The position numbers and the translations under genes are program-made. Shown one piece after another: positions 860-23,445 of a stretch of 64,000 nucleotides of DNA. The notes under the pieces are model-generated. The model saw nothing but the letters and a program-made list of their open reading frames with translations, made no database searches and was not told where the DNA came from. The stretch comes from Alphaproteobacteria bacterium (GTDB lineage Bacteria; Pseudomonadota; Alphaproteobacteria; UBA9219; RGZA01): contig JANQEX010000003.1 of the NCBI GenBank assembly GCA_028278105.1, positions 6,972 to 70,971 of the forward strand, in the 5' to 3' direction. The stretch's first letter is position 1; every line of letters starts with the position of its first letter.

Positions 860-3628
860 TCAATTCGTCTTAACGCAAACAGCATGTACGGCAGTAGTAG
901 TAGCCACCGGGGAATAAGGGTCATAGGAAATACATCGCCATCCGTTATTGTAAGGTATGCTGGATATAATATGGCCATCGTAAGATACTGTCTCACAGCC
1001 GCCGGAAAGCACCGTGTAATTCACCGGACACTGAACGCTAACCATTTTTCCGCCAGCTTGCGTAATTGAGTTGTTCACAATCGTGGTCGTGAGGCCAAAG
1101 GCGGTTGCAGCCACCTTGCCTGCAACATCGAGCTTGGTTGCCGGACTCGTCGTCCCGATGCCGACATTGCCGGAGGGAGTGACGGCAAAGATATCGTTCC
1201 ACGCTGTTCCATTATAATAAGAAATTTCGAAATTATTCGCGCGAGTTCCCCAGCCGCTCGACCGTTTTGAAACGACCCAGATATTAGATGAATCTTCAAA
1301 AAAGCTGACCGCGCCTGTATTGAGCGTCCCGGAGGTATGCGGACTTTCAAGGCGCAATTCCGCGGACGCCGACGCATTATATATTTCCAGTGGAAATTCC
1401 GGGCTCGTTGTTCCGATGCCGACGTTGCCGTCGTGGTCGATGGTCATCCGCGCCAAATTGCTTGTTCCAAAATGCAGGGCGTCATTGTTCACGTTGACCA
1501 CCGCGGCTGAGTTGTCGGCGCCACTGGTCGAATGGTGATAACTGTCGTCAGAATTCCCGTCGCTGTTGGTCAGCAAAAGGCCCCAGCTTGTATTGGCGGC
1601 GTGCGCGATATTGACCTGGTTATAGATGGCACCCTTAATGCGCAGCACGTGGCCATGGCCCCCGCCGCCCACGTCAAGCAAAGCACCCGGCGTTGCCGTC
1701 CCGATGCCGATATTGCCGCCGGTGTAGTAGAGGGCGCTGCTGGCGCCGTCCTGCCACTGCGAGGAACCCGCCGCCGCGCCGTTTTCCCATGCGCCGCTGG
1801 AGGAATTATAGACCAGCGCCTCGCCGTCCGAGAGCGTGCCGAGCGACACGTCGGTCAGCCCGGCCAGCGTGCTTGAGCCGCCACCTCCGCCGCCGTCCCC
1901 GCTGCCGTTTATCAGGAAACCAGAGAACCTTGTGAATAGCGTTGTGCCGTGAATATTCAACCCGCCGGCATCATCTGCGAGAGCGTAAATTTCAATATAA
2001 TCGGTGCTGCCATTCATATCCAGCACCGCCGTCACGTTCGGTACGACCGTCGCGCTGTTTTGGTATCCACTCAAATATATAACGCCGTTTTTATATATCC
2101 TCAGAAAGCAAGCAGTGGCCGCATGCTCACAAAGCGCATTGGCGGTGACGAGGTACTTGCCGGCAACGGTTGGGGTAAAGCGACTGGTTGCCGTATCAAA
2201 GTTGTTGTTGGTGTCGTAATCCTCCGCAGGCCAGGTCACCTTTGTCTCGGTAAAATGGGGGATCGCCTGGCTGACGCCGTTCTTGTGGACCGAGAACGCG
2301 ACCTGGGTTCCGCTGCCCGGCCCGGCAGCCGTCCAGCCTGAGGCAGTCTTGACGTAGAGGGAATCCCGGTCGGTGTCATAGACCACAAGACCGGTGGCGG
2401 GCGAACTGATCGCCTCGCGCTGCACCGTGGTCATGCGCGGGGGGAGGAAGCCTTTGCTGGTGCTGGTCACGTCGAACAGCGCCGAGGCGGCGGGCGATGA
2501 CGTGCCAATCGCCACCGCCCCCGTGGTGTAATAAAGATCACTCCCCGACGCGCCCCATTGCGAGGAAGAGACGCTGGCCCATGTCTGGTCCCCCCGCAGA
2601 TAGGTGGAATTGTCCGCCGTGCCGCCGCCAAGCCGGGCAGTAGGCACCGTGCCGCTGGCGAGATTGCCGGCGTTCAGAGCCGTCAGCGACGCGCCGGAGC
2701 CTGAGAAAGCCATGGCCGTCACCGTACCGTTCACATCAAGCTTCGTGGCCGGACTCGCCGTTCCGATGCCGATGTTGCCGGAAGGAAGGACACTGAATAA
2801 ATCGCCATTCGACACGCCATATGTGCTGATTGCAAAAAGACTGGCCGTCTGTCCGTACGCGCTCCTGATCTGGAGCCCAACCTGGTCATTCGCAGGCATC
2901 AATGCCAATCCTGGCTGCGGACTCCATCCAGTAGAAAATTGGGCAACGTAAGATCCGCCCGTACTTCCGACCGCCACGTAAGGCCCGCCCTGGAGGCCAA
3001 TCCCCCCGCCCCCATAAGTTACTATCCTATATTTCGAAGCACCGGATTGAAGGCGAATGAGTTCGCCAAAATCTGAAGCAGCAACATGCAGGGGTGCAAC
3101 GGGAGTGCTCGTCCCGATCCCCACATTGCCGTTTGCATCCACCACGCCCAACACATTGCCCGAAGAGTCCCGCCACTCCTGCAAATTCCCCGTCTGGCTT
3201 GCCGCGCCCTTTACGACAAGGGGAGTGTCGGTCGCGGCCTGTGATATAAGCATCAGCAGGACGCCGGAGGTGGCATAGGTGGCGGCCACGGCACCACCAA
3301 GGCCTGTTCCGGTGTTATACTGCACCTGCCCGCTGGAGCCGCCGGCGCCGCTGACCGGCGCATCCTCGGTGCAGGTGATAATGGTACCATTGCTGGAGCA
3401 CCATTTGCCGTTCTCCAAGGTACCCACCTTGGGGTCCACCTCGGTGGCCGAGCCGGAAGCCGCCATGCTGATCCAGCTTGCGCCGTCGCAGAACTGCATC
3501 ACGCCGTGGTCGGCATTGTAGATTTGCTCGCCCTTAATGCCGGTGGGGTTCGCACAGCCCGCCCACAAGGGACCACCGGCCAGCAGCGCGGCGCAAAGGG
3601 CGGCAAGGAAGGCAAGGTCGCGCGTCAT
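860..3628 (-). CDS. secreted fibre-like repeat protein (tail-fibre/adhesin type, with internal C1q/TNF-like domain and Cys-rich C-terminus)
   Basis: Lies in a 950-aa ORF; the likely start is the ATG at 3628, giving MTRDLAFLAALCAALLAGGPLWAG-C, a signal peptide with an atypical lipobox. It has six GN(V/I)GIGTxxSP...L(D/H/E)(V/I) repeats. It also has YLRGDQTW and GFLPPRMTTVQREAI motifs typical of phage tail-fibre-like proteins, and a poly-Gly linker. GC is visibly lower than in the flanking bio genes. Confidence 0.75.
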   Translation of the reverse strand: MTRDLAFLAALCAALLAGGPLWAGCANPTGIKGEQIYNADHGVMQFCDGASWISMAASGSATEVDPKVGTLENGKWCSSNGTIITCTEDAPVSGAGGSSGQVQYNTGTGLGGAVAATYATSGVLLMLISQAATDTPLVVKGAASQTGNLQEWRDSSGNVLGVVDANGNVGIGTSTPVAPLHVAASDFGELIRLQSGASKYRIVTYGGGGIGLQGGPYVAVGSTGGSYVAQFSTGWSPQPGLALMPANDQVGLQIRSAYGQTASLFAISTYGVSNGDLFSVLPSGNIGIGTASPATKLDVNGTVTAMAFSGSGASLTALNAGNLASGTVPTARLGGGTADNSTYLRGDQTWASVSSSQWGASGSDLYYTTGAVAIGTSSPAASALFDVTSTSKGFLPPRMTTVQREAISSPATGLVVYDTDRDSLYVKTASGWTAAGPGSGTQVAFSVHKNGVSQAIPHFTETKVTWPAEDYDTNNNFDTATSRFTPTVAGKYLVTANALCEHAATACFLRIYKNGVIYLSGYQNSATVVPNVTAVLDMNGSTDYIEIYALADDAGGLNIHGTTLFTRFSGFLINGSGDGGGGGGSSTLAGLTDVSLGTLSDGEALVYNSSSGAWENGAAAGSSQWQDGASSALYYTGGNIGIGTATPGALLDVGGGGHGHVLRIKGAIYNQVNIAHAANTSWGLLLTNSDGNSDDSYHHSTSGADNSAAVVNVNNDALHFGTSNLARMTIDHDGNVGIGTTSPEFPLEIYNASASAELRLESPHTSGTLNTGAVSFFEDSSNIWVVSKRSSGWGTRANNFEISYYNGTAWNDIFAVTPSGNVGIGTTSPATKLDVAGKVAATAFGLTTTIVNNSITQAGGKMVSVQCPVNYTVLSGGCETVSYDGHIISSIPYNNGWRCISYDPYSPVATTTAVHAVCVKTN

Positions 3629-3885
3629 GGCTTGCCGGGCGCGGAAAAGAGGGACGGGATAATGGGATAAGGCTTGGGCTTCGCAGCACCCGTCACCACG
3701 CGGCCCTGACACCGCCGCCAGTCGGCGGGGTGATCCGGCGTTCCGGTGGCGCAGGGCGGCGCTTTTTCACGGGAGGCCTTCGCCAGATGAAAGGATTCCG
3801 GCCCGGCCAAGACGGCGGCAAGGACGGCCAAAACAGCCACTCCCGCGGCTGTACCCATGAGTGCAAGTGACCGGCGCGCGCCCAC
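3625..3885 (-). CDS. small single-pass membrane protein (86 aa), translationally coupled to the fibre-like gene
   Basis: GTG start at 3885 is preceded by GGGGGAG. A hydrophobic helix LMGTAAGVAVLAVLAAVLAG is present. Its TGA overlaps the ATG of the downstream gene (ATGA, 3625-3628). It sits directly behind leader RNA copy 3. Confidence 0.5.
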   Translation of the reverse strand: MGARRSLALMGTAAGVAVLAVLAAVLAGPESFHLAKASREKAPPCATGTPDHPADWRRCQGRVVTGAAKPKPYPIIPSLFSAPGKP

Positions 3886-4076
3886 GCTTAAACTCCCCCT
3901 GGTGGCTGGGAGTTCGAAAATCGTACACAGACGACTGCAGGGGCCTTTGGCCGTAAGGCTTGGACATGCGCCACTGCCTCCCAGCCCGACAGGCCGGAGG
4001 CAGCGTTCATCTCGGCAACGCTGACCGCTGTGTACGAGGTTTCGACACCCCGGAAATGGCCAGAACCATTTCCGCC
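3886..4076 (-). ncRNA. structured 5' leader RNA, unclassified family, copy 3
   Basis: Shares the conserved core ATGTCCAAGCCTTACGGCC and the same hairpin order as the other three copies, with compensatory arm changes. On the minus strand it is preceded by TTGACC (4108-4103), 17 nt, then CAGTAT (4085-4080). The terminal helix AACTCCC/GGGAGTT covers the SD of the 3885 ORF. Confidence 0.6.
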
Positions 4077-6980: not shown

Positions 6981-7070
6981 GGAGGGGTGGCAGAGTGGTC
7001 GATTGCGGCGGTCTCGAAAACCGTTATACCCGCGAGGGTATCGGAGGTTCGAATCCTCTCCCCTCCGCCA
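6981..7070 (+). tRNA. tRNA-Ser (anticodon CGA), CCA encoded
   Basis: Acceptor stem GGAGGGG/CCCCTCC, anticodon loop CT-CGA-AA, long variable arm, T-loop GGTTCGAATCC, 3' GCCA. Confidence 0.9.
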
Positions 7071-7082
7071 CCGGCAGTGTCT

Positions 7083-7700
7083 CACTTTGAAAATCACCCC
7101 CGCGCCCGTCTTCTCGCGGGGGCAAGCTCCAGCAGGGGCAGGCATGACATTTGGTTAAATTGGGTCTGGCCCCCAATTCCTCTCCCCCTTGGGGGAGAGG
7201 TTGCAAGAGCTTGGGTTTAGATGCGAAGCAGCTAAACCCTTATACTAACGAATTTATGAACGGACACGCGCCAAAAAGTAACCTGTCATGCCCGCCCCCG
7301 CTGGAGTTTACCCCCGCGAAGGCGGGGGCGAGGGCAGGCTCCGGCGGGCATCCACGCTAAAAAACCATCAAAACAAAAGTTTTAAAGCGTGGACCCCCGC
7401 CTGCGCGGGGGTGACGGTCCATGCTTTCAGGATGAGTTATTTCATAAGACCGCTGGTATTAGTTGTTGCTGGTGAGGGGGTTCACTCCCCGAACTCCTCC
7501 CCGCCTTCGCCCTTCGAGCTTCGGTGGACGAGATTTCTTCAAGGACCCGCCGGAGCTTTGGCGAAGGCGGGCAAGAGAAGAGAAAGCCTTTCCCGAAAGA
7601 GACGAAGGCCCCCATGGTTCTTCCTCCCATACCCTCCCCTAACCCCTCCCAAAGGGAGGGGGAGCATGAATGTCATGGCCGGGTCGCGGAAATGTTCGGG
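7083..7700. repeat. dense cluster of nested GC-rich palindromic repeats (REP/MITE-like), approximate bounds
   Basis: Contains units also found elsewhere in the window: a family unit at 7086-7148, hairpin CCTCTCCCCC-TT-GGGGGAGAGG at 7179-7200, a family-C element at 7253-7448, a CCCGCCTTCGCC...GGCGAAGGCGGG palindrome at about 7498-7572, and a CCCTCCCAAAGGGAGGG hairpin at about 7626-7665. Confidence 0.7.
7253..7448. mobile_element. MITE-like element, family C, copy 1
   Basis: Ends TTATGAACGGACACGCGCCAAAAAGTAACC... and ...GAGTTATTTCATAAG. Shares the core GTCATGCCCGC...GGGCATCCACGCTAAAAAACCATCAAAACAAAAGTTTTAAAGCGTGG with 49570-49743. Confidence 0.6.
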
Positions 7701-7767
7701 TGCGGCCTTGTTCTTCAGGCATTTTCCTCCGTTCATTGACAGCTTGCGGCAGGACTGCCAATCTGAT

Positions 7768-7989
7768 GCCAGAAGATCACTGGATCTTTCGGGGTATAGT
7801 TACCTCTCGATTAGCGGAACGAGCGTTGCCGACACAAACGCTGCCTCCGGCCTTATGGCTGGGAGGCAGTGGCGTATGTCCAAAGCCTCGCGGCTGAAAG
7901 GCCATTGCAATCGTCTAATCGCGATTAACTAACTCCCAGTCACCAAAAAGCATGCCGGCGCGCGGCATGCCCATCAATGGGAGGGCATC
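7768..7989 (+). ncRNA. structured 5' leader RNA, unclassified family, copy 1
   Basis: Preceded by TTGACA (7735-7740), 17 nt, then CAATCT (7758-7763). The hairpin series and conserved core ATGTCCAAAGCCTCGCGGC are present. Anti-SD CTCCC pairs with SD GGGAG just upstream of the ATG at 7990. Confidence 0.6.
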
Positions 7990-8151
7990 ATGGACTGGAT
8001 AGACGTCGTTCTGCGGCTGTTAAGCTGGCAAAACTTCCTTATCATAATCATCACCACATGGGGCTATAATTTCCATCTCCGCATTCTGGAAATCCAGAAA
8101 CAACATCGGGAAGTCATTGCCCTGTTGCAGGAAATTTCGGCGAAGACATAA
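7990..8151 (+). CDS. 53-aa hydrophobic membrane peptide (MDWIDVVLRLLSWQNFLIIIITTWGYNFHLRILEIQKQHREVIALLQEISAKT)
   Basis: ATG is preceded by GGGAGGG. There is one predicted TM helix. A near-identical paralogue lies 549 bp downstream. It is below the 60-aa cutoff of the ORF track. Confidence 0.55.
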   Translation: MDWIDVVLRLLSWQNFLIIIITTWGYNFHLRILEIQKQHREVIALLQEISAKT

Positions 8152-8321
8152 AATTCGCCGTCTTCTTCGCGCATCGCTTAACCTGCGGCCATCTGAAGCT
8201 CGACCCACTCCCCGATCAGGCCCTTTCCATATCCCCAATGTACGTATCTTGTGCGGCTTTGTTCCTTGAGCCTTTTTTTCTCCGTTCATTGACAGTTTGC
8301 GGCAAGACTGCCAATCTGATG

Positions 8322-8538
8322 CCGGAAGATCACTTGATCTTCCGGGGTGTAGTTACCTCGCAGTTACCGGAACGAGCGTTGCCGACACAAACGCTGCCTC
8401 TGGCCCTATGGCTGGGAGGCAGTGGCGTATGTCCAAGCCTCACGGCCAAAGGCCCCTGCAATCGTGTAACTGCGATTAACTAACTCCCAGTCACCAAAAA
8501 GCATGCCGGCGCGGCATGCCCATCAATGGGAGGGCATC
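8322..8538 (+). ncRNA. structured 5' leader RNA, unclassified family, copy 2
   Basis: Preceded by TTGACA (8289-8294), 17 nt, then CAATCT (8312-8317). Helices: GGAAGATC/GATCTTCC (8324-8343), GCGTT/AACGC (8376-8394), CTGCCTC/GAGGCAG (8394-8422), AATCG/CGATT (8460-8477), GCATGCC/GGCATGC (8501-8519), and anti-SD CTCCC (8484-8488) with SD GGGAG (8528-8532). Confidence 0.6.
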
Positions 8539-8700
8539 ATGGACTGGATAGACGTCGTTCTGCGGCTGTTAAGCTGGCAAAACTTTCTTATCATAATCAT
8601 CACCACATGGGGCTATAATTTCCATCTCCGCATTCTGGAAATCCAGAAACAACATCGGGAAGTCATTGCCCTGTTGCGGGAAATTTCGGCGAAGACATAA
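8539..8700 (+). CDS. 53-aa hydrophobic membrane peptide, paralogue of 7990-8151 (one Q/R difference)
   Basis: Lies within the track ORF 8503-8700. The ATG at 8539 has a GGGAGGG SD. It differs from copy 1 at only 2 nt over 162 nt. Confidence 0.55.
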   Translation: MDWIDVVLRLLSWQNFLIIIITTWGYNFHLRILEIQKQHREVIALLREISAKT

Positions 8701-8875
8701 AAAACGCGCCAATCCGGGCCGAACGCCAAGCGCAAAAGCCGTGAAAATCGCCTCGCGCGCCAATAAAGCCGGAAGCCAAAGACCAGGCGCGAGACCGTTC
8801 CGCGCATGGCTGCGGGCTGGAAATTCAGATGCTCTGCGGTTATGCCCGGTACAGGCGGCAGGCCGTCCCCGCCCT

Positions 8876-22844: not shown

Positions 22845-22950
22845 ATTTTAAAAATCACCCCCGCCCCCGCCTGCGCGGGGACAGGCTCCGGCGGGGGTCC
22901 CATTTGATTAAAAAACAATGGAATGCCCGCCTCCGCGGGCATGATATTTT
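22845..22950. repeat. GC-rich palindromic repeat units, approximate bounds
   Basis: TTTAAAAATCACCCCCGCCCCCGCCTGCGCGGGGACAGGCTCCGGCGGGGG... is the same unit type as 7086-7148 and 26503-26567. Confidence 0.6.
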
Positions 22951-22975: not shown

Positions 22976-23125
22976 ATAGAAAACCACGTTCATGCAACAG
23001 CCCTGCATTTTCTGCACTATAATTTTGCGCGGGTTCACAAAACGCTGTGGATCACTCCAGCTATGGCCGCAGGGATGTGTGACCATATTTGGGAAATCGA
23101 TGAAATTGTCGGCCTCATGAAACAA
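22976..23125 (+). pseudogene. transposase C-terminal remnant (IS1595/IS1-like tail)
   Basis: Translation is LHFLHYNFARVHKTLWITPAMAAGMCDHIWEIDEIVGLM, matching the conserved YNFxRxHKTLxxTPAMAAGxxDxxW tail of such transposases. No catalytic N-terminal part is present. Family assignment is from memory only. Confidence 0.5.
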
Positions 23126-23131
23126 GGAAGG

Positions 23132-23263
23132 CTAAAGCCCGTCTTCTTCTCTGTCCCATTTTTTAAGCAGAGCGCTAATTTCTTTGTGGGACAGCCAAAG
23201 ATTGCGAACGACTTTGTAGACGACAAAGGCAAGCAAGGCGCATCCCGCAGGCCACCACAGCAT
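23132..23263 (-). CDS. 43-aa hydrophobic membrane peptide (MLWWPAGCALLAFVVYKVVRNLWLSHKEISALLKKWDREEDGL)
   Basis: Hand-translated. The ATG at 23263 is preceded by GGGGAGGT. It shares the TM helix plus HxE(V/I)xALL(R/K) tail architecture with the 53-aa peptides. It is below the ORF-track cutoff. Confidence 0.5.
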   Translation of the reverse strand: MLWWPAGCALLAFVVYKVVRNLWLSHKEISALLKKWDREEDGL

Positions 23264-23445
23264 TCTCAACCTCCCCGGTGGGTGAACCGGAGGTTAAGAA
23301 CCGCGTAGACGCGGCCAGCAGCTTTTGGCCGTGAGGCTTGGACATGACTGCCGCCTCCGGCCCCCAGGCACGGACAGGCGGCATCTTGACAGTGATGCCT
23401 ACTGGTCTACGGAGGTTCTTAAGCCTCAAAGCGCATGTTTGTATG
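23264..23445 (-). ncRNA. structured 5' leader RNA, unclassified family, copy 4 (5' boundary uncertain)
   Basis: The conserved core ATGTCCAAGCCTCACGGCC is present. Helices are GGCATC/GATGCC, GCCGCCT/AGGCGGC, GGCCA/TGGCC and CCGCG/CGCGG. The anti-SD/SD helix is AACCTCC/GGAGGTT. Confidence 0.5.

Follow-up and report, generated by a model that had tools for sequence, protein, structure and literature searches.

The leader RNA of a tandem small-peptide module in an alphaproteobacterium, a probable member of a C4/sRNA-Xcc1-type family of cis-regulatory RNAs

The window analysed here, 64,000 nucleotides of contig JANQEX010000003.1 from an Alphaproteobacteria bacterium (GenBank assembly GCA_028278105.1), carries two head-to-tail units at approximately 7700-8158 and 8250-8707. 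In each unit, a promoter-like box and a structured leader of 220 nt precede an open reading frame (ORF) for a peptide of 53 amino acids (aa). A preliminary description of this locus had proposed that the module represents a family of type I toxin-like membrane peptides. We found that the tandem units are real, as confirmed by a repeat search and by base-by-base comparison. The same holds for a third unit on the minus strand, with a leader at 23429-23278 and a 43-aa ORF at 23263-23132. Moreover, a fourth leader copy at 4053-3898 (minus strand), which was absent from the preliminary description, was found via a stretch common to units 2 and 3. The features are listed below, where R1 denotes a covariance model that was built from 35 related sequences and sRNA-Xcc1 denotes the Rfam family RF02221.

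7736-7764, plus strand: promoter-like site of unit 1, TTGACA-17 nt-CAATCT, read from the sequence
7768-7790, plus strand: variable 5' hairpin P0 of unit 1, from the minimum free energy (MFE) fold
7789-7947, plus strand: core RNA of unit 1 (R1 128.6 bits, E 2.5e-27; sRNA-Xcc1 27.9 bits over 7857-7949)
7791-7806, plus strand: Pa hairpin of unit 1, with loop a1 at 7797-7802 and linker b1 at 7808-7814
7815-7841, plus strand: S1/S2 pseudoknot of unit 1, with the pyrimidine strand at 7840-7852
7857-7865 with 7933-7941, plus strand: helix P1 of unit 1; helix P2 is formed by 7866-7873 with 7901-7908
7915-7921, plus strand: P3 loop b' of unit 1, followed by a' at 7926-7932 and the ACCA tail at 7942-7945
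7950-7989, plus strand: expression platform of unit 1, a hairpin at 7950-7970 and then the Shine-Dalgarno (SD) sequence UGGGAGGG at 7978-7985, from the MFE fold
7990-8151, plus strand: ORF of unit 1, 53 aa, predicted single long helix, ORFan (AlphaFold2, homology searches)
8289-8317, plus strand: promoter-like site of unit 2, read from the sequence
8342-8498, plus strand: core RNA of unit 2 (R1 139.1 bits, E 1.1e-29)
8539-8700, plus strand: ORF of unit 2, 53 aa (R47)
23278-23429, minus strand: core RNA of unit 3 (R1 96.5 bits, E 4.3e-20; sRNA-Xcc1 31.6 bits)
immediately 3' of the unit 3 core RNA, minus strand: SD-sequestering hairpin of unit 3, CCUCCGG...CCGGGGAGG
23132-23263, minus strand: ORF of unit 3, 43 aa, ORFan
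3898-4053, minus strand: core RNA of unit 4, the fourth copy (R1 139.3 bits, E 1e-29; sRNA-Xcc1 38.7 bits)

The repeat search yielded the direct repeats 7722-7883/8275-8436 (92%), 7897-7962/8448-8513 (92%) and 7960-8158/8509-8707 (98%), three co-linear blocks with offsets of 549-553 nt. The TTGACA boxes are present as previously noted, but they lie at 7736-7741 and 8289-8294, with a spacing of 553 nt and not 554 nt. Base-by-base comparison bore out what had been stated for the two ORFs of equal length, which differ at 2 of 162 nt, a synonymous C/T change in a Phe codon at 8037 and an A/G change at 8129 that results in Q47R. It also bore out that the leader is more diverged than the ORF, with 21 of 222 nt (9.5%) changed between the units. 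Around the TTGACA boxes 12 of 73 nt differ, and the homology ends a few bases 3' of the stop codon. The tract of low divergence (7921-8153) starts about 70 nt 5' of the ATG, inside the leader and not at the ATG itself. Hence, gene conversion would account for the near-identical ORFs as well as purifying selection does.

The compensatory changes that had been ascribed to the leader are likewise real, and they are located in a pseudoknot. In the linker (7807-7814) and in the loop (7915-7920), units 1 and 2 differ by seven substitutions, all of which keep or lengthen one and the same helix, the b1:b' pairing, which reads CGAUUAG:CUAAUCG in unit 1 and GCAGUUAC:GUAACUGC in unit 2. Two further substitutions strengthen pairing in the P0 hairpin. 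The best reading of the tandem pair is a duplication in which the 3' part (7921-8153) was kept or made near-identical, while the b1/b' helix diverged through compensated changes. The tandem module is real and almost certainly functional.

The otherwise invariant core of unit 1 shows an extra A and a C-to-UG change at 7882 and 7895-7896 (CCAAAGCC, GGCUGAAAG). This unit scores about 10 bits below unit 2 on R1 and may be a degenerating or a diverging copy.

The leader is not confined to this locus. R1 matches exactly four times in the window, with 96-139 bits, and 77 times in 84 fetched related loci. These 84 stretches were collected by an exact 19-nt core pattern, with one genome per species, and about 73 of them contain the whole motif. 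The carriers are mostly alphaproteobacterial assemblies labelled Micavibrio, Hyphomicrobium, Bradyrhizobium, Afipia and Devosia together with unnamed lineages, and a small number of bins bear the label Verrucomicrobia or Bdellovibrionales. Two or three copies are present in several genomes. No fetched locus was nearly identical to the one in the window, and the genomes with the closest leader copies suggest that the source is a Micavibrio-like alphaproteobacterium. Using Rfam at gathering thresholds, only two tRNAs were found in the window, and only tRNAs and one group I intron in 18 related loci; the leader family escapes these thresholds. A search of the unit DNA against plasmids with BLAST gave no match.

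The structure of the leader was read from an alignment of 75 sequences (A4). Pairs were counted on all 75 sequences, and partners slid by 1-3 columns served as control. From 5' to 3', the leader comprises the variable hairpin P0, the hairpin Pa (GGGG-loop-CCYC), a linker, the elements S1/S2, which form an H-type pseudoknot opening with a conserved AGCGG, a pyrimidine-rich strand and a three-way junction of the helices P1, P2 and P3. Helix P2 has a 3-bp tip and an internal loop that is conserved. The loop of Pa can pair with the junction segment immediately 5' of the P1 3' strand, and the linker is complementary to the P3 loop. Over 53 pairs, 91.6% of the cells are paired compared to 38-48% with slid partners, and 43 of the 53 pairs show changes on both sides, all three pseudoknot helices included. 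The S2 helix is paired in 94.5%, the helix of the Pa loop in 88% and the linker:P3-loop helix in 73-86%. The helices that join a1/b1 to a'/b' (helices 2-4) are paired in 73-88%, with 13 of their 14 pairs changed on both sides.

Moreover, the pyrimidine strand pairs with GGCCGGGAGGCGGC in an alternative hairpin (90.4% paired, compared to 42-65% with slid partners), and this hairpin is mutually exclusive with P1 and P2. Since both P1/P2 and the hairpin of the pyrimidine strand are conserved, the leader possesses two conserved alternative folds. Directly 3' of P1, the sequence RCCA is found in 68 of the 75 sequences.

The position of the leader in front of a gene is fixed. In 63 cases an SD sequence and a start codon follow on the same strand, 104-125 nt from the core, and this distance is about 82 nt where the SD hairpin directly adjoins P1. 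Two kinds of expression platform occur. About 28 relatives have long-armed intrinsic terminators, the 5' arm of which (CCGGYCACCAG) overlaps the P1 3' strand, and the SD sequence lies 10-30 nt past the terminator. The other relatives and all four window copies are without a terminator; here the P1 3' strand, ACUCCC(A/G)G, can base-pair with the SD region. In units 1 and 2, CUCCCA (7934-7939) pairs with UGGGAG (7978-7983) in the MFE fold, and the SD sequence of unit 1, UGGGAGGG, is complementary to the P1 3' strand ACUCCCAG with a duplex energy of -11.0 kcal/mol. The canonical distance and the strong SD sequence indicate that the small ORFs are probably translated.

We consider it likely that each unit is a self-contained cassette, in which its own promoter and a pseudoknotted leader of about 190-220 nt would control the ribosome-binding site (RBS) of the small ORF, acting in cis as a translational ON/OFF switch. 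In the ON fold, GGCUGGGAG would pair with CUCCCAGUC to form P1, leaving the anti-SD or terminator arm hidden and the SD sequence free. In the OFF fold, the upstream pyrimidine strand would capture GGCUGGGAGG, the P1 5' strand, and thereby free ACUCCCAG, which in each of the four window copies would pair with the SD sequence UGGGAGG. The freed P1 3' strand would instead complete an intrinsic terminator in many relatives. We infer both the direction of this switch and the signal that would set the balance between the folds. Nested-only energies, which leave out 13-15 pseudoknot pairs, place the SD-sequestered (OFF) fold 4-8 kcal/mol below the P1 (ON) fold, and these pairs could cover the gap. 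A cut by RNase P at the 5' side of P1, as in the C4 RNA of phages P1 and P7, might yield a stable RNA of roughly 90 nt, with the mRNA thereby locked in the ON fold.

The only Rfam family that matches the leader is sRNA-Xcc1, and the match lies in the 3' half of the leader. Three window copies align over model positions 1-87 of 87, with 27.9, 31.6 and 38.7 bits. Conversely, R1 matches a true sRNA-Xcc1 element on a Pseudomonas plasmid (L085, 1415-1578) at 28.9 bits and E 7e-5, where RF02221 scores 72.6 bits, and weaker matches were obtained in two further loci, L086 and L087. The Pseudomonas element lies 38 nt upstream of a BRO-family gene, true sRNA-Xcc1 elements sit 38-41 nt before BRO and Ant genes, and antirepressor genes follow the homologues found in an Stx2 phage and an Aggregatibacter phage. 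The true members have an unannotated 5' domain (L085 1385-1620, L086 1060-1325) with a promoter, an a1-loop hairpin, a b1 linker and AGCGG, in which the hairpin loop matches the junction and the linker matches the P3 loop. Since the same upstream elements are present in true members, the Rfam model of sRNA-Xcc1 spans only the 3' half of a longer unit. In addition, L085 and L086 repeat a1/b1 at the RBS of the downstream BRO/Ant gene, as phage P1 does with a2/b2; in L086 these repeats are UCAGAAC and UCAGAAG as well as CUAAAG and CUAAAG, the latter followed by GAGG.

In the Aggregatibacter phage S1249 (L087), two weak tandem R1 matches (1117-1286 and 1370-1517, E 4e-4 and 2e-3) were seen before an antirepressor gene.

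Published work has placed sRNA-Xcc1 upstream of an ORF6N gene in APSE phages and a related leader upstream of the toxin gene symE in Xanthomonas cassettes (bioRxiv 10.1101/2025.06.18.660453). A genomic island of Xylella contains five tandem copies of sRNA-Xcc1, one about every 381 bp (PMC12189769). Northern blots revealed an RNA of about 88-100 nt in X. campestris, the ends of which were mapped (PMC2996969). The mapped 5' end coincides with the start of P1.

The second relationship is that to the immI region of phage P1. According to its annotation and the Rfam alignments, immI contains, in this order, promoters, a hairpin that exposes a1 in its loop, b1 immediately 3' of this hairpin, a GCGG hairpin and the 77-nt C4 RNA, followed by a2/b2, which lie at the RBS of icd, a small toxic gene, and then by ant. 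The C4 RNA consists of an outer stem and two hairpins, the second of which has b' in its loop, with a' located in the junction and CCACC in the tail. Between phages P1 and P7, the sites a1/b1 and a'/b' are reportedly variable but complementary, as Citron and Schuster are said to have described in 1990. C4 is matured by RNase P via its acceptor-like stem and CCA. For the family leaders, the RCCA that follows P1 in most sequences, together with the Xanthomonas 5' end at the start of P1, suggests a similar processing by RNase P. In our analysis the leader is no hallmark of toxin loci; it belongs to a large family of cis-regulatory RNAs of the C4/sRNA-Xcc1 type.

Several points weigh against this interpretation. 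The proposed switch rests entirely on sequence; neither a ligand nor a protein nor a processing event was observed. The core AUGUCCAAGCCUYRCGGCC was the search key, so that its invariance is given by construction and the sample of the family is biased. A strict sigma-70 consensus scan returned no site on either strand, the boxes of the tandem units included; a TTGAC...TAnnnT box is present at equal distance in most of 71 related loci of alignment A4. The window copies and all 18 of the 18 related loci miss the sRNA-Xcc1 gathering score of 53 bits. Within 7600-8800 no match to C4, c4-a1b1 or isrK was obtained in Rfam at E <= 10, hence the homology to C4 rests on architecture. Moreover, a2/b2 target repeats were not found by inspection downstream of 7947, 8498 and 23278.

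The genes behind the leader are diverse. More than 60 unrelated genes, mostly coding for exported proteins, are preceded by it, and 47 of 63 downstream products have a hydrophobic N-terminus of the signal-peptide, lipoprotein or transmembrane (TM) type. A Pfam domain was found in only 4 of 39 products (GIY-YIG, C-type lectin, BamE and DUF3192). A recurrent N-terminal motif, CxxPxGxxGExxYNxxxxxxQFCDGxxW, is shared by a 922-aa protein of the window and proteins in at least six other genomes, in each case behind the RNA motif; members of this Cys-motif family stand directly behind it in L002, L014, L017, L044, L059 and L067. The genes behind unit 4 and the remaining sites around the tandem units are the following.

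3625-3885, minus strand: 86-aa ORF that begins with GTG behind unit 4; its N-terminus is hydrophobic
860-3628, minus strand: gene for the 922-aa secreted tail-fibre-like protein (PHROG tail fibre families, E 4.8e-20)
8255-8280, plus strand: terminator-like hairpin and T-run between units 1 and 2, from a consensus scan only
7700-7726: diverged copy of this inter-unit terminator-like stretch

The stop codon of the 86-aa ORF overlaps the ATG of the 922-aa gene (ATGA), and the 922-aa gene is translationally coupled to this ORF. The 86-aa product had no match in Pfam, NCBIfam, PADLOC or PHROGs.

Some further observations concern the surroundings and the distribution of the units. The 1.8-kb intergenic stretch with the tandem units begins directly after tRNA-Ser(cga) at 6981-7070. 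GC-rich palindromic repeats resembling repetitive extragenic palindromic (REP) elements lie at 7099-7149/7284-7334 and at 22860-22945 (e.g. CCCGC...GCGGG with GGCAGGCATGA) and flank this tRNA gene and the region of unit 3. Tandem leader-ORF cassettes are not unique to the window, as a Bradyrhizobiaceae bin (L071, 7412-7990, minus strand) also has two tandem leader copies. Behind the first of them lies the ORF of a 51-aa membrane peptide. The second, a divergent copy (42.9 bits) with an extended tip on P2, is followed by an 82-aa ORF. The group I intron mentioned above (RF00028, 55.9 bits) was found in an alphaproteobacterial assembly at L007 2280-2473 and is unrelated to the leader.

Two other explanations of the repeated element were considered and rejected. 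A transposable repeat of the miniature inverted-repeat (MITE) type does not fit, as the copies differ throughout except at paired and core positions, are without terminal inverted repeats and always face an ORF. An RNA thermometer (ROSE) or a known riboswitch class was rejected because no such Rfam match was obtained at E <= 10.

A more far-reaching possibility, which we regard as doubtful, is that the 3' domain is excised by RNase P as a C4-like RNA and acts in trans on a1/b1 of nascent transcripts from its own cassette. The hypervariable yet complementary pairings a1:a' and b1:b' would then be address codes that prevent cross-talk among paralogous cassettes. In such a case, a phage immunity device would have been domesticated into an array of orthogonal, self-limiting circuits by which Micavibrio-like Alphaproteobacteria express small peptides and exported proteins. 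If true, this would account for the recoding of b1/b' by three fully compensated pairs next to an almost constant ORF, with the copies turning orthogonal.

It is unlikely that the leader is a strict small-molecule riboswitch, in which the pseudoknotted domain would be the aptamer and a ligand would stabilize P1. Such a switch would share with the leader a conserved, covarying and pseudoknotted domain, two exclusive folds in which P1 competes with a terminator or an SD-sequestering helix, transcriptional as well as translational platforms across the representatives and several copies per genome. However, the downstream genes form no coherent set, have no metabolic theme and indicate no candidate ligand, and the tertiary pairing is largely hypervariable, with no evident conserved pocket outside the ascertained core. 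The variable tertiary helices look like specificity codes. Moreover, the RNA-RNA and RNase P logic of the phage P1 C4 system works without a ligand.

According to the preliminary description, the peptides would be membrane toxins of type I toxin-antitoxin systems, with an mRNA that is inert until processed and an RNA antitoxin that restrains it. We consider this improbable. The parts of the proposal that stand are a separable, structured and SD-occluding leader, short helical and hydrophobic peptides and the tandem arrangement, and these are the features in which the module resembles hok/sok, ldr/rdl, zor/orz, aapA/isoA and symE/symR, where a small hydrophobic ORF of helical structure, a long, structured 5' untranslated region that hides the SD sequence and tandem paralogues are combined. 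The peptides are indeed short, the 53-aa peptide is predicted to form one helix whose core is hydrophobic, the SD sequence is sequestered in the most stable fold and the module occurs in tandem, as do the five sRNA-Xcc1 copies in Xylella. Related leaders precede symE and, in phage P1, the toxic cell-division inhibitor gene icd. Finally, removal of the OFF-strand by RNase P would amount to activation by 5' processing as in type I systems.

These features do not identify a toxin, however. The leader is a general one that is common to many genes other than toxin genes, including those for the 922-aa tail-fibre-like protein, a lectin-domain protein and a BamE-like protein. Since 47 of the 63 downstream products start with a hydrophobic segment, the hydrophobic N-terminus of the 53-aa and 43-aa peptides is the norm of the family and not a toxin signature. 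In the 53-aa peptide the hydrophobicity is modest (best 11-residue window 1.87). AlphaFold2, used with the single sequence, predicts one helix over residues 3-52 with a pLDDT of 96, which fits many roles. Most likely, the 53-aa products are small membrane peptides that consist of one helix. We found neither a promoter-like site on either strand nor a minus-strand terminator inside the units in a crude consensus scan, which is a weak negative for an antisense antitoxin gene, a defining feature of type I systems. The only terminator-like site on the minus strand (8805-8787) lies outside the units, and the only RNA found to be complementary to the mRNA is the 3' domain of the leader itself.

Homology searches gave no indication of a toxin either. 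The searches covered 1.84 billion representatives, 5.8 billion clusters and metagenome DNA. Word-index searches returned for both peptides nothing besides the query and the window's own proteins, phmmer against 1.84 billion representatives returned the query alone, and a scan of metagenome contigs by back-translation gave 600 pattern matches, none of which was confirmed. No toxin or defence profile and no other entry of Pfam, NCBIfam, PADLOC or PHROGs matched the peptides. No homologue was obtained in these searches, and both peptides are ORFans. The H(R/K)E(V/I)xALL(R/K) motif that was said to unite the 53-aa and 43-aa peptides amounts to 5 of 11 residues, 16 bits in BLASTP and a pairwise E of 0.008; with a similarity this weak, a single peptide family is not supported. 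Nor had the three ORFs been overlooked by annotation, as was claimed, since all of them are already called as genes in a public protein collection (P0001-P0003). The residual link to toxicity runs only via Icd and SymE behind related leaders. Nothing specific supports toxicity of the peptides, which is unproven. A small hydrophobic ORF behind an SD-occluding leader thus does not suffice to call a type I toxin, which is a caution for similar loci.

On the plus strand at approximately 22990-23115, a stretch with the translation ...LHFLHYNFARVHKTLWITPAMAAGMCDHIWEIDEIVGL appears to be what remains of the C-terminal part of a transposase gene, and it converges on the 3' end of the 43-aa ORF.

The view that the element is the gene of a free-standing trans-acting sRNA, with the downstream ORF as an independent neighbour or no gene at all, would agree with the discrete RNA of X. 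campestris, with the intrinsic terminator at the end of many relatives and with the RCCA tail, which suggests that a stable processed RNA is released, but it is very improbable, given the same-strand SD sequence and start codon at a fixed distance in 63 cases, the 10-30 nt between terminator and SD/start, which leave no room for a separate promoter of the ORF, the SD regions, whose complementarity to the P1 3' strand often extends past the SD core (e.g. CCGGGAG, -17.5 kcal/mol), and the window copies without a terminator. A free-standing sRNA does not exclude control in cis, as an sRNA derived from the leader could act in trans too.

If the cassette with its cis-acting leader is the correct reading, sRNA-Xcc1 would be the 3' half of a C4-type leader module and not a free-standing, virulence-linked sRNA, and this module would tie it to the RNA-based control of phage antirepressor genes. 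The same device recurs many times on the chromosomes of poorly studied Alphaproteobacteria, epibiotic predators included, in front of unannotated genes for secreted, lipoprotein and tail-fibre-like products, which may constitute an undescribed regulon. The covariance model R1 provides a handle for finding this regulon.

Among known systems, C4 (RF01695) and c4-a1b1 (RF03163), which belong to clan CL00128 and have relatives in the P4 CI RNA and isrK, share with the leader the order of promoter, hairpin, a1-loop hairpin, b1, GCGG hairpin, an RNA of about 87 nt and a small ORF. In both, the RNA has an outer stem and two inner hairpins, with b' in the loop of the second hairpin, a' at the junction and CCA within the tail, and the two upstream sites a1 and b1 are complementary to a' and b', as found in the alignment of the family. 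They differ in that P2 of the family has a large conserved internal loop, which C4 lacks, in that the genes controlled here are not antirepressor genes, and in that processing by RNase P is assumed here.

The leader and sRNA-Xcc1 have in common a three-way junction in which an outer stem is joined to two hairpins, one of them with a 3-bp tip and an internal loop that is conserved, and which is followed by a CACC tail. The window copies tested match over the full length of the model, R1 matches reciprocally, the 5' elements are the same and a gene on the same strand lies directly downstream. The scores of 28-39 bits remain below the 53 bits required, and sRNA-Xcc1 was published as a trans-acting sRNA. 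True members are found on mobile elements (integron cassettes, plasmids, temperate phages and Xylella islands) before ant, BRO, ORF6N and symE, and have a2/b2-like repeats at the RBS, whereas the copies described here occur several times on a chromosome, with the P1 3' strand serving as anti-SD or terminator arm. What is new is a chromosomal, multi-copy alphaproteobacterial variant, in which P1 is wired directly to a terminator or an SD sequence and which stands before genes for exported proteins and orphan peptides.

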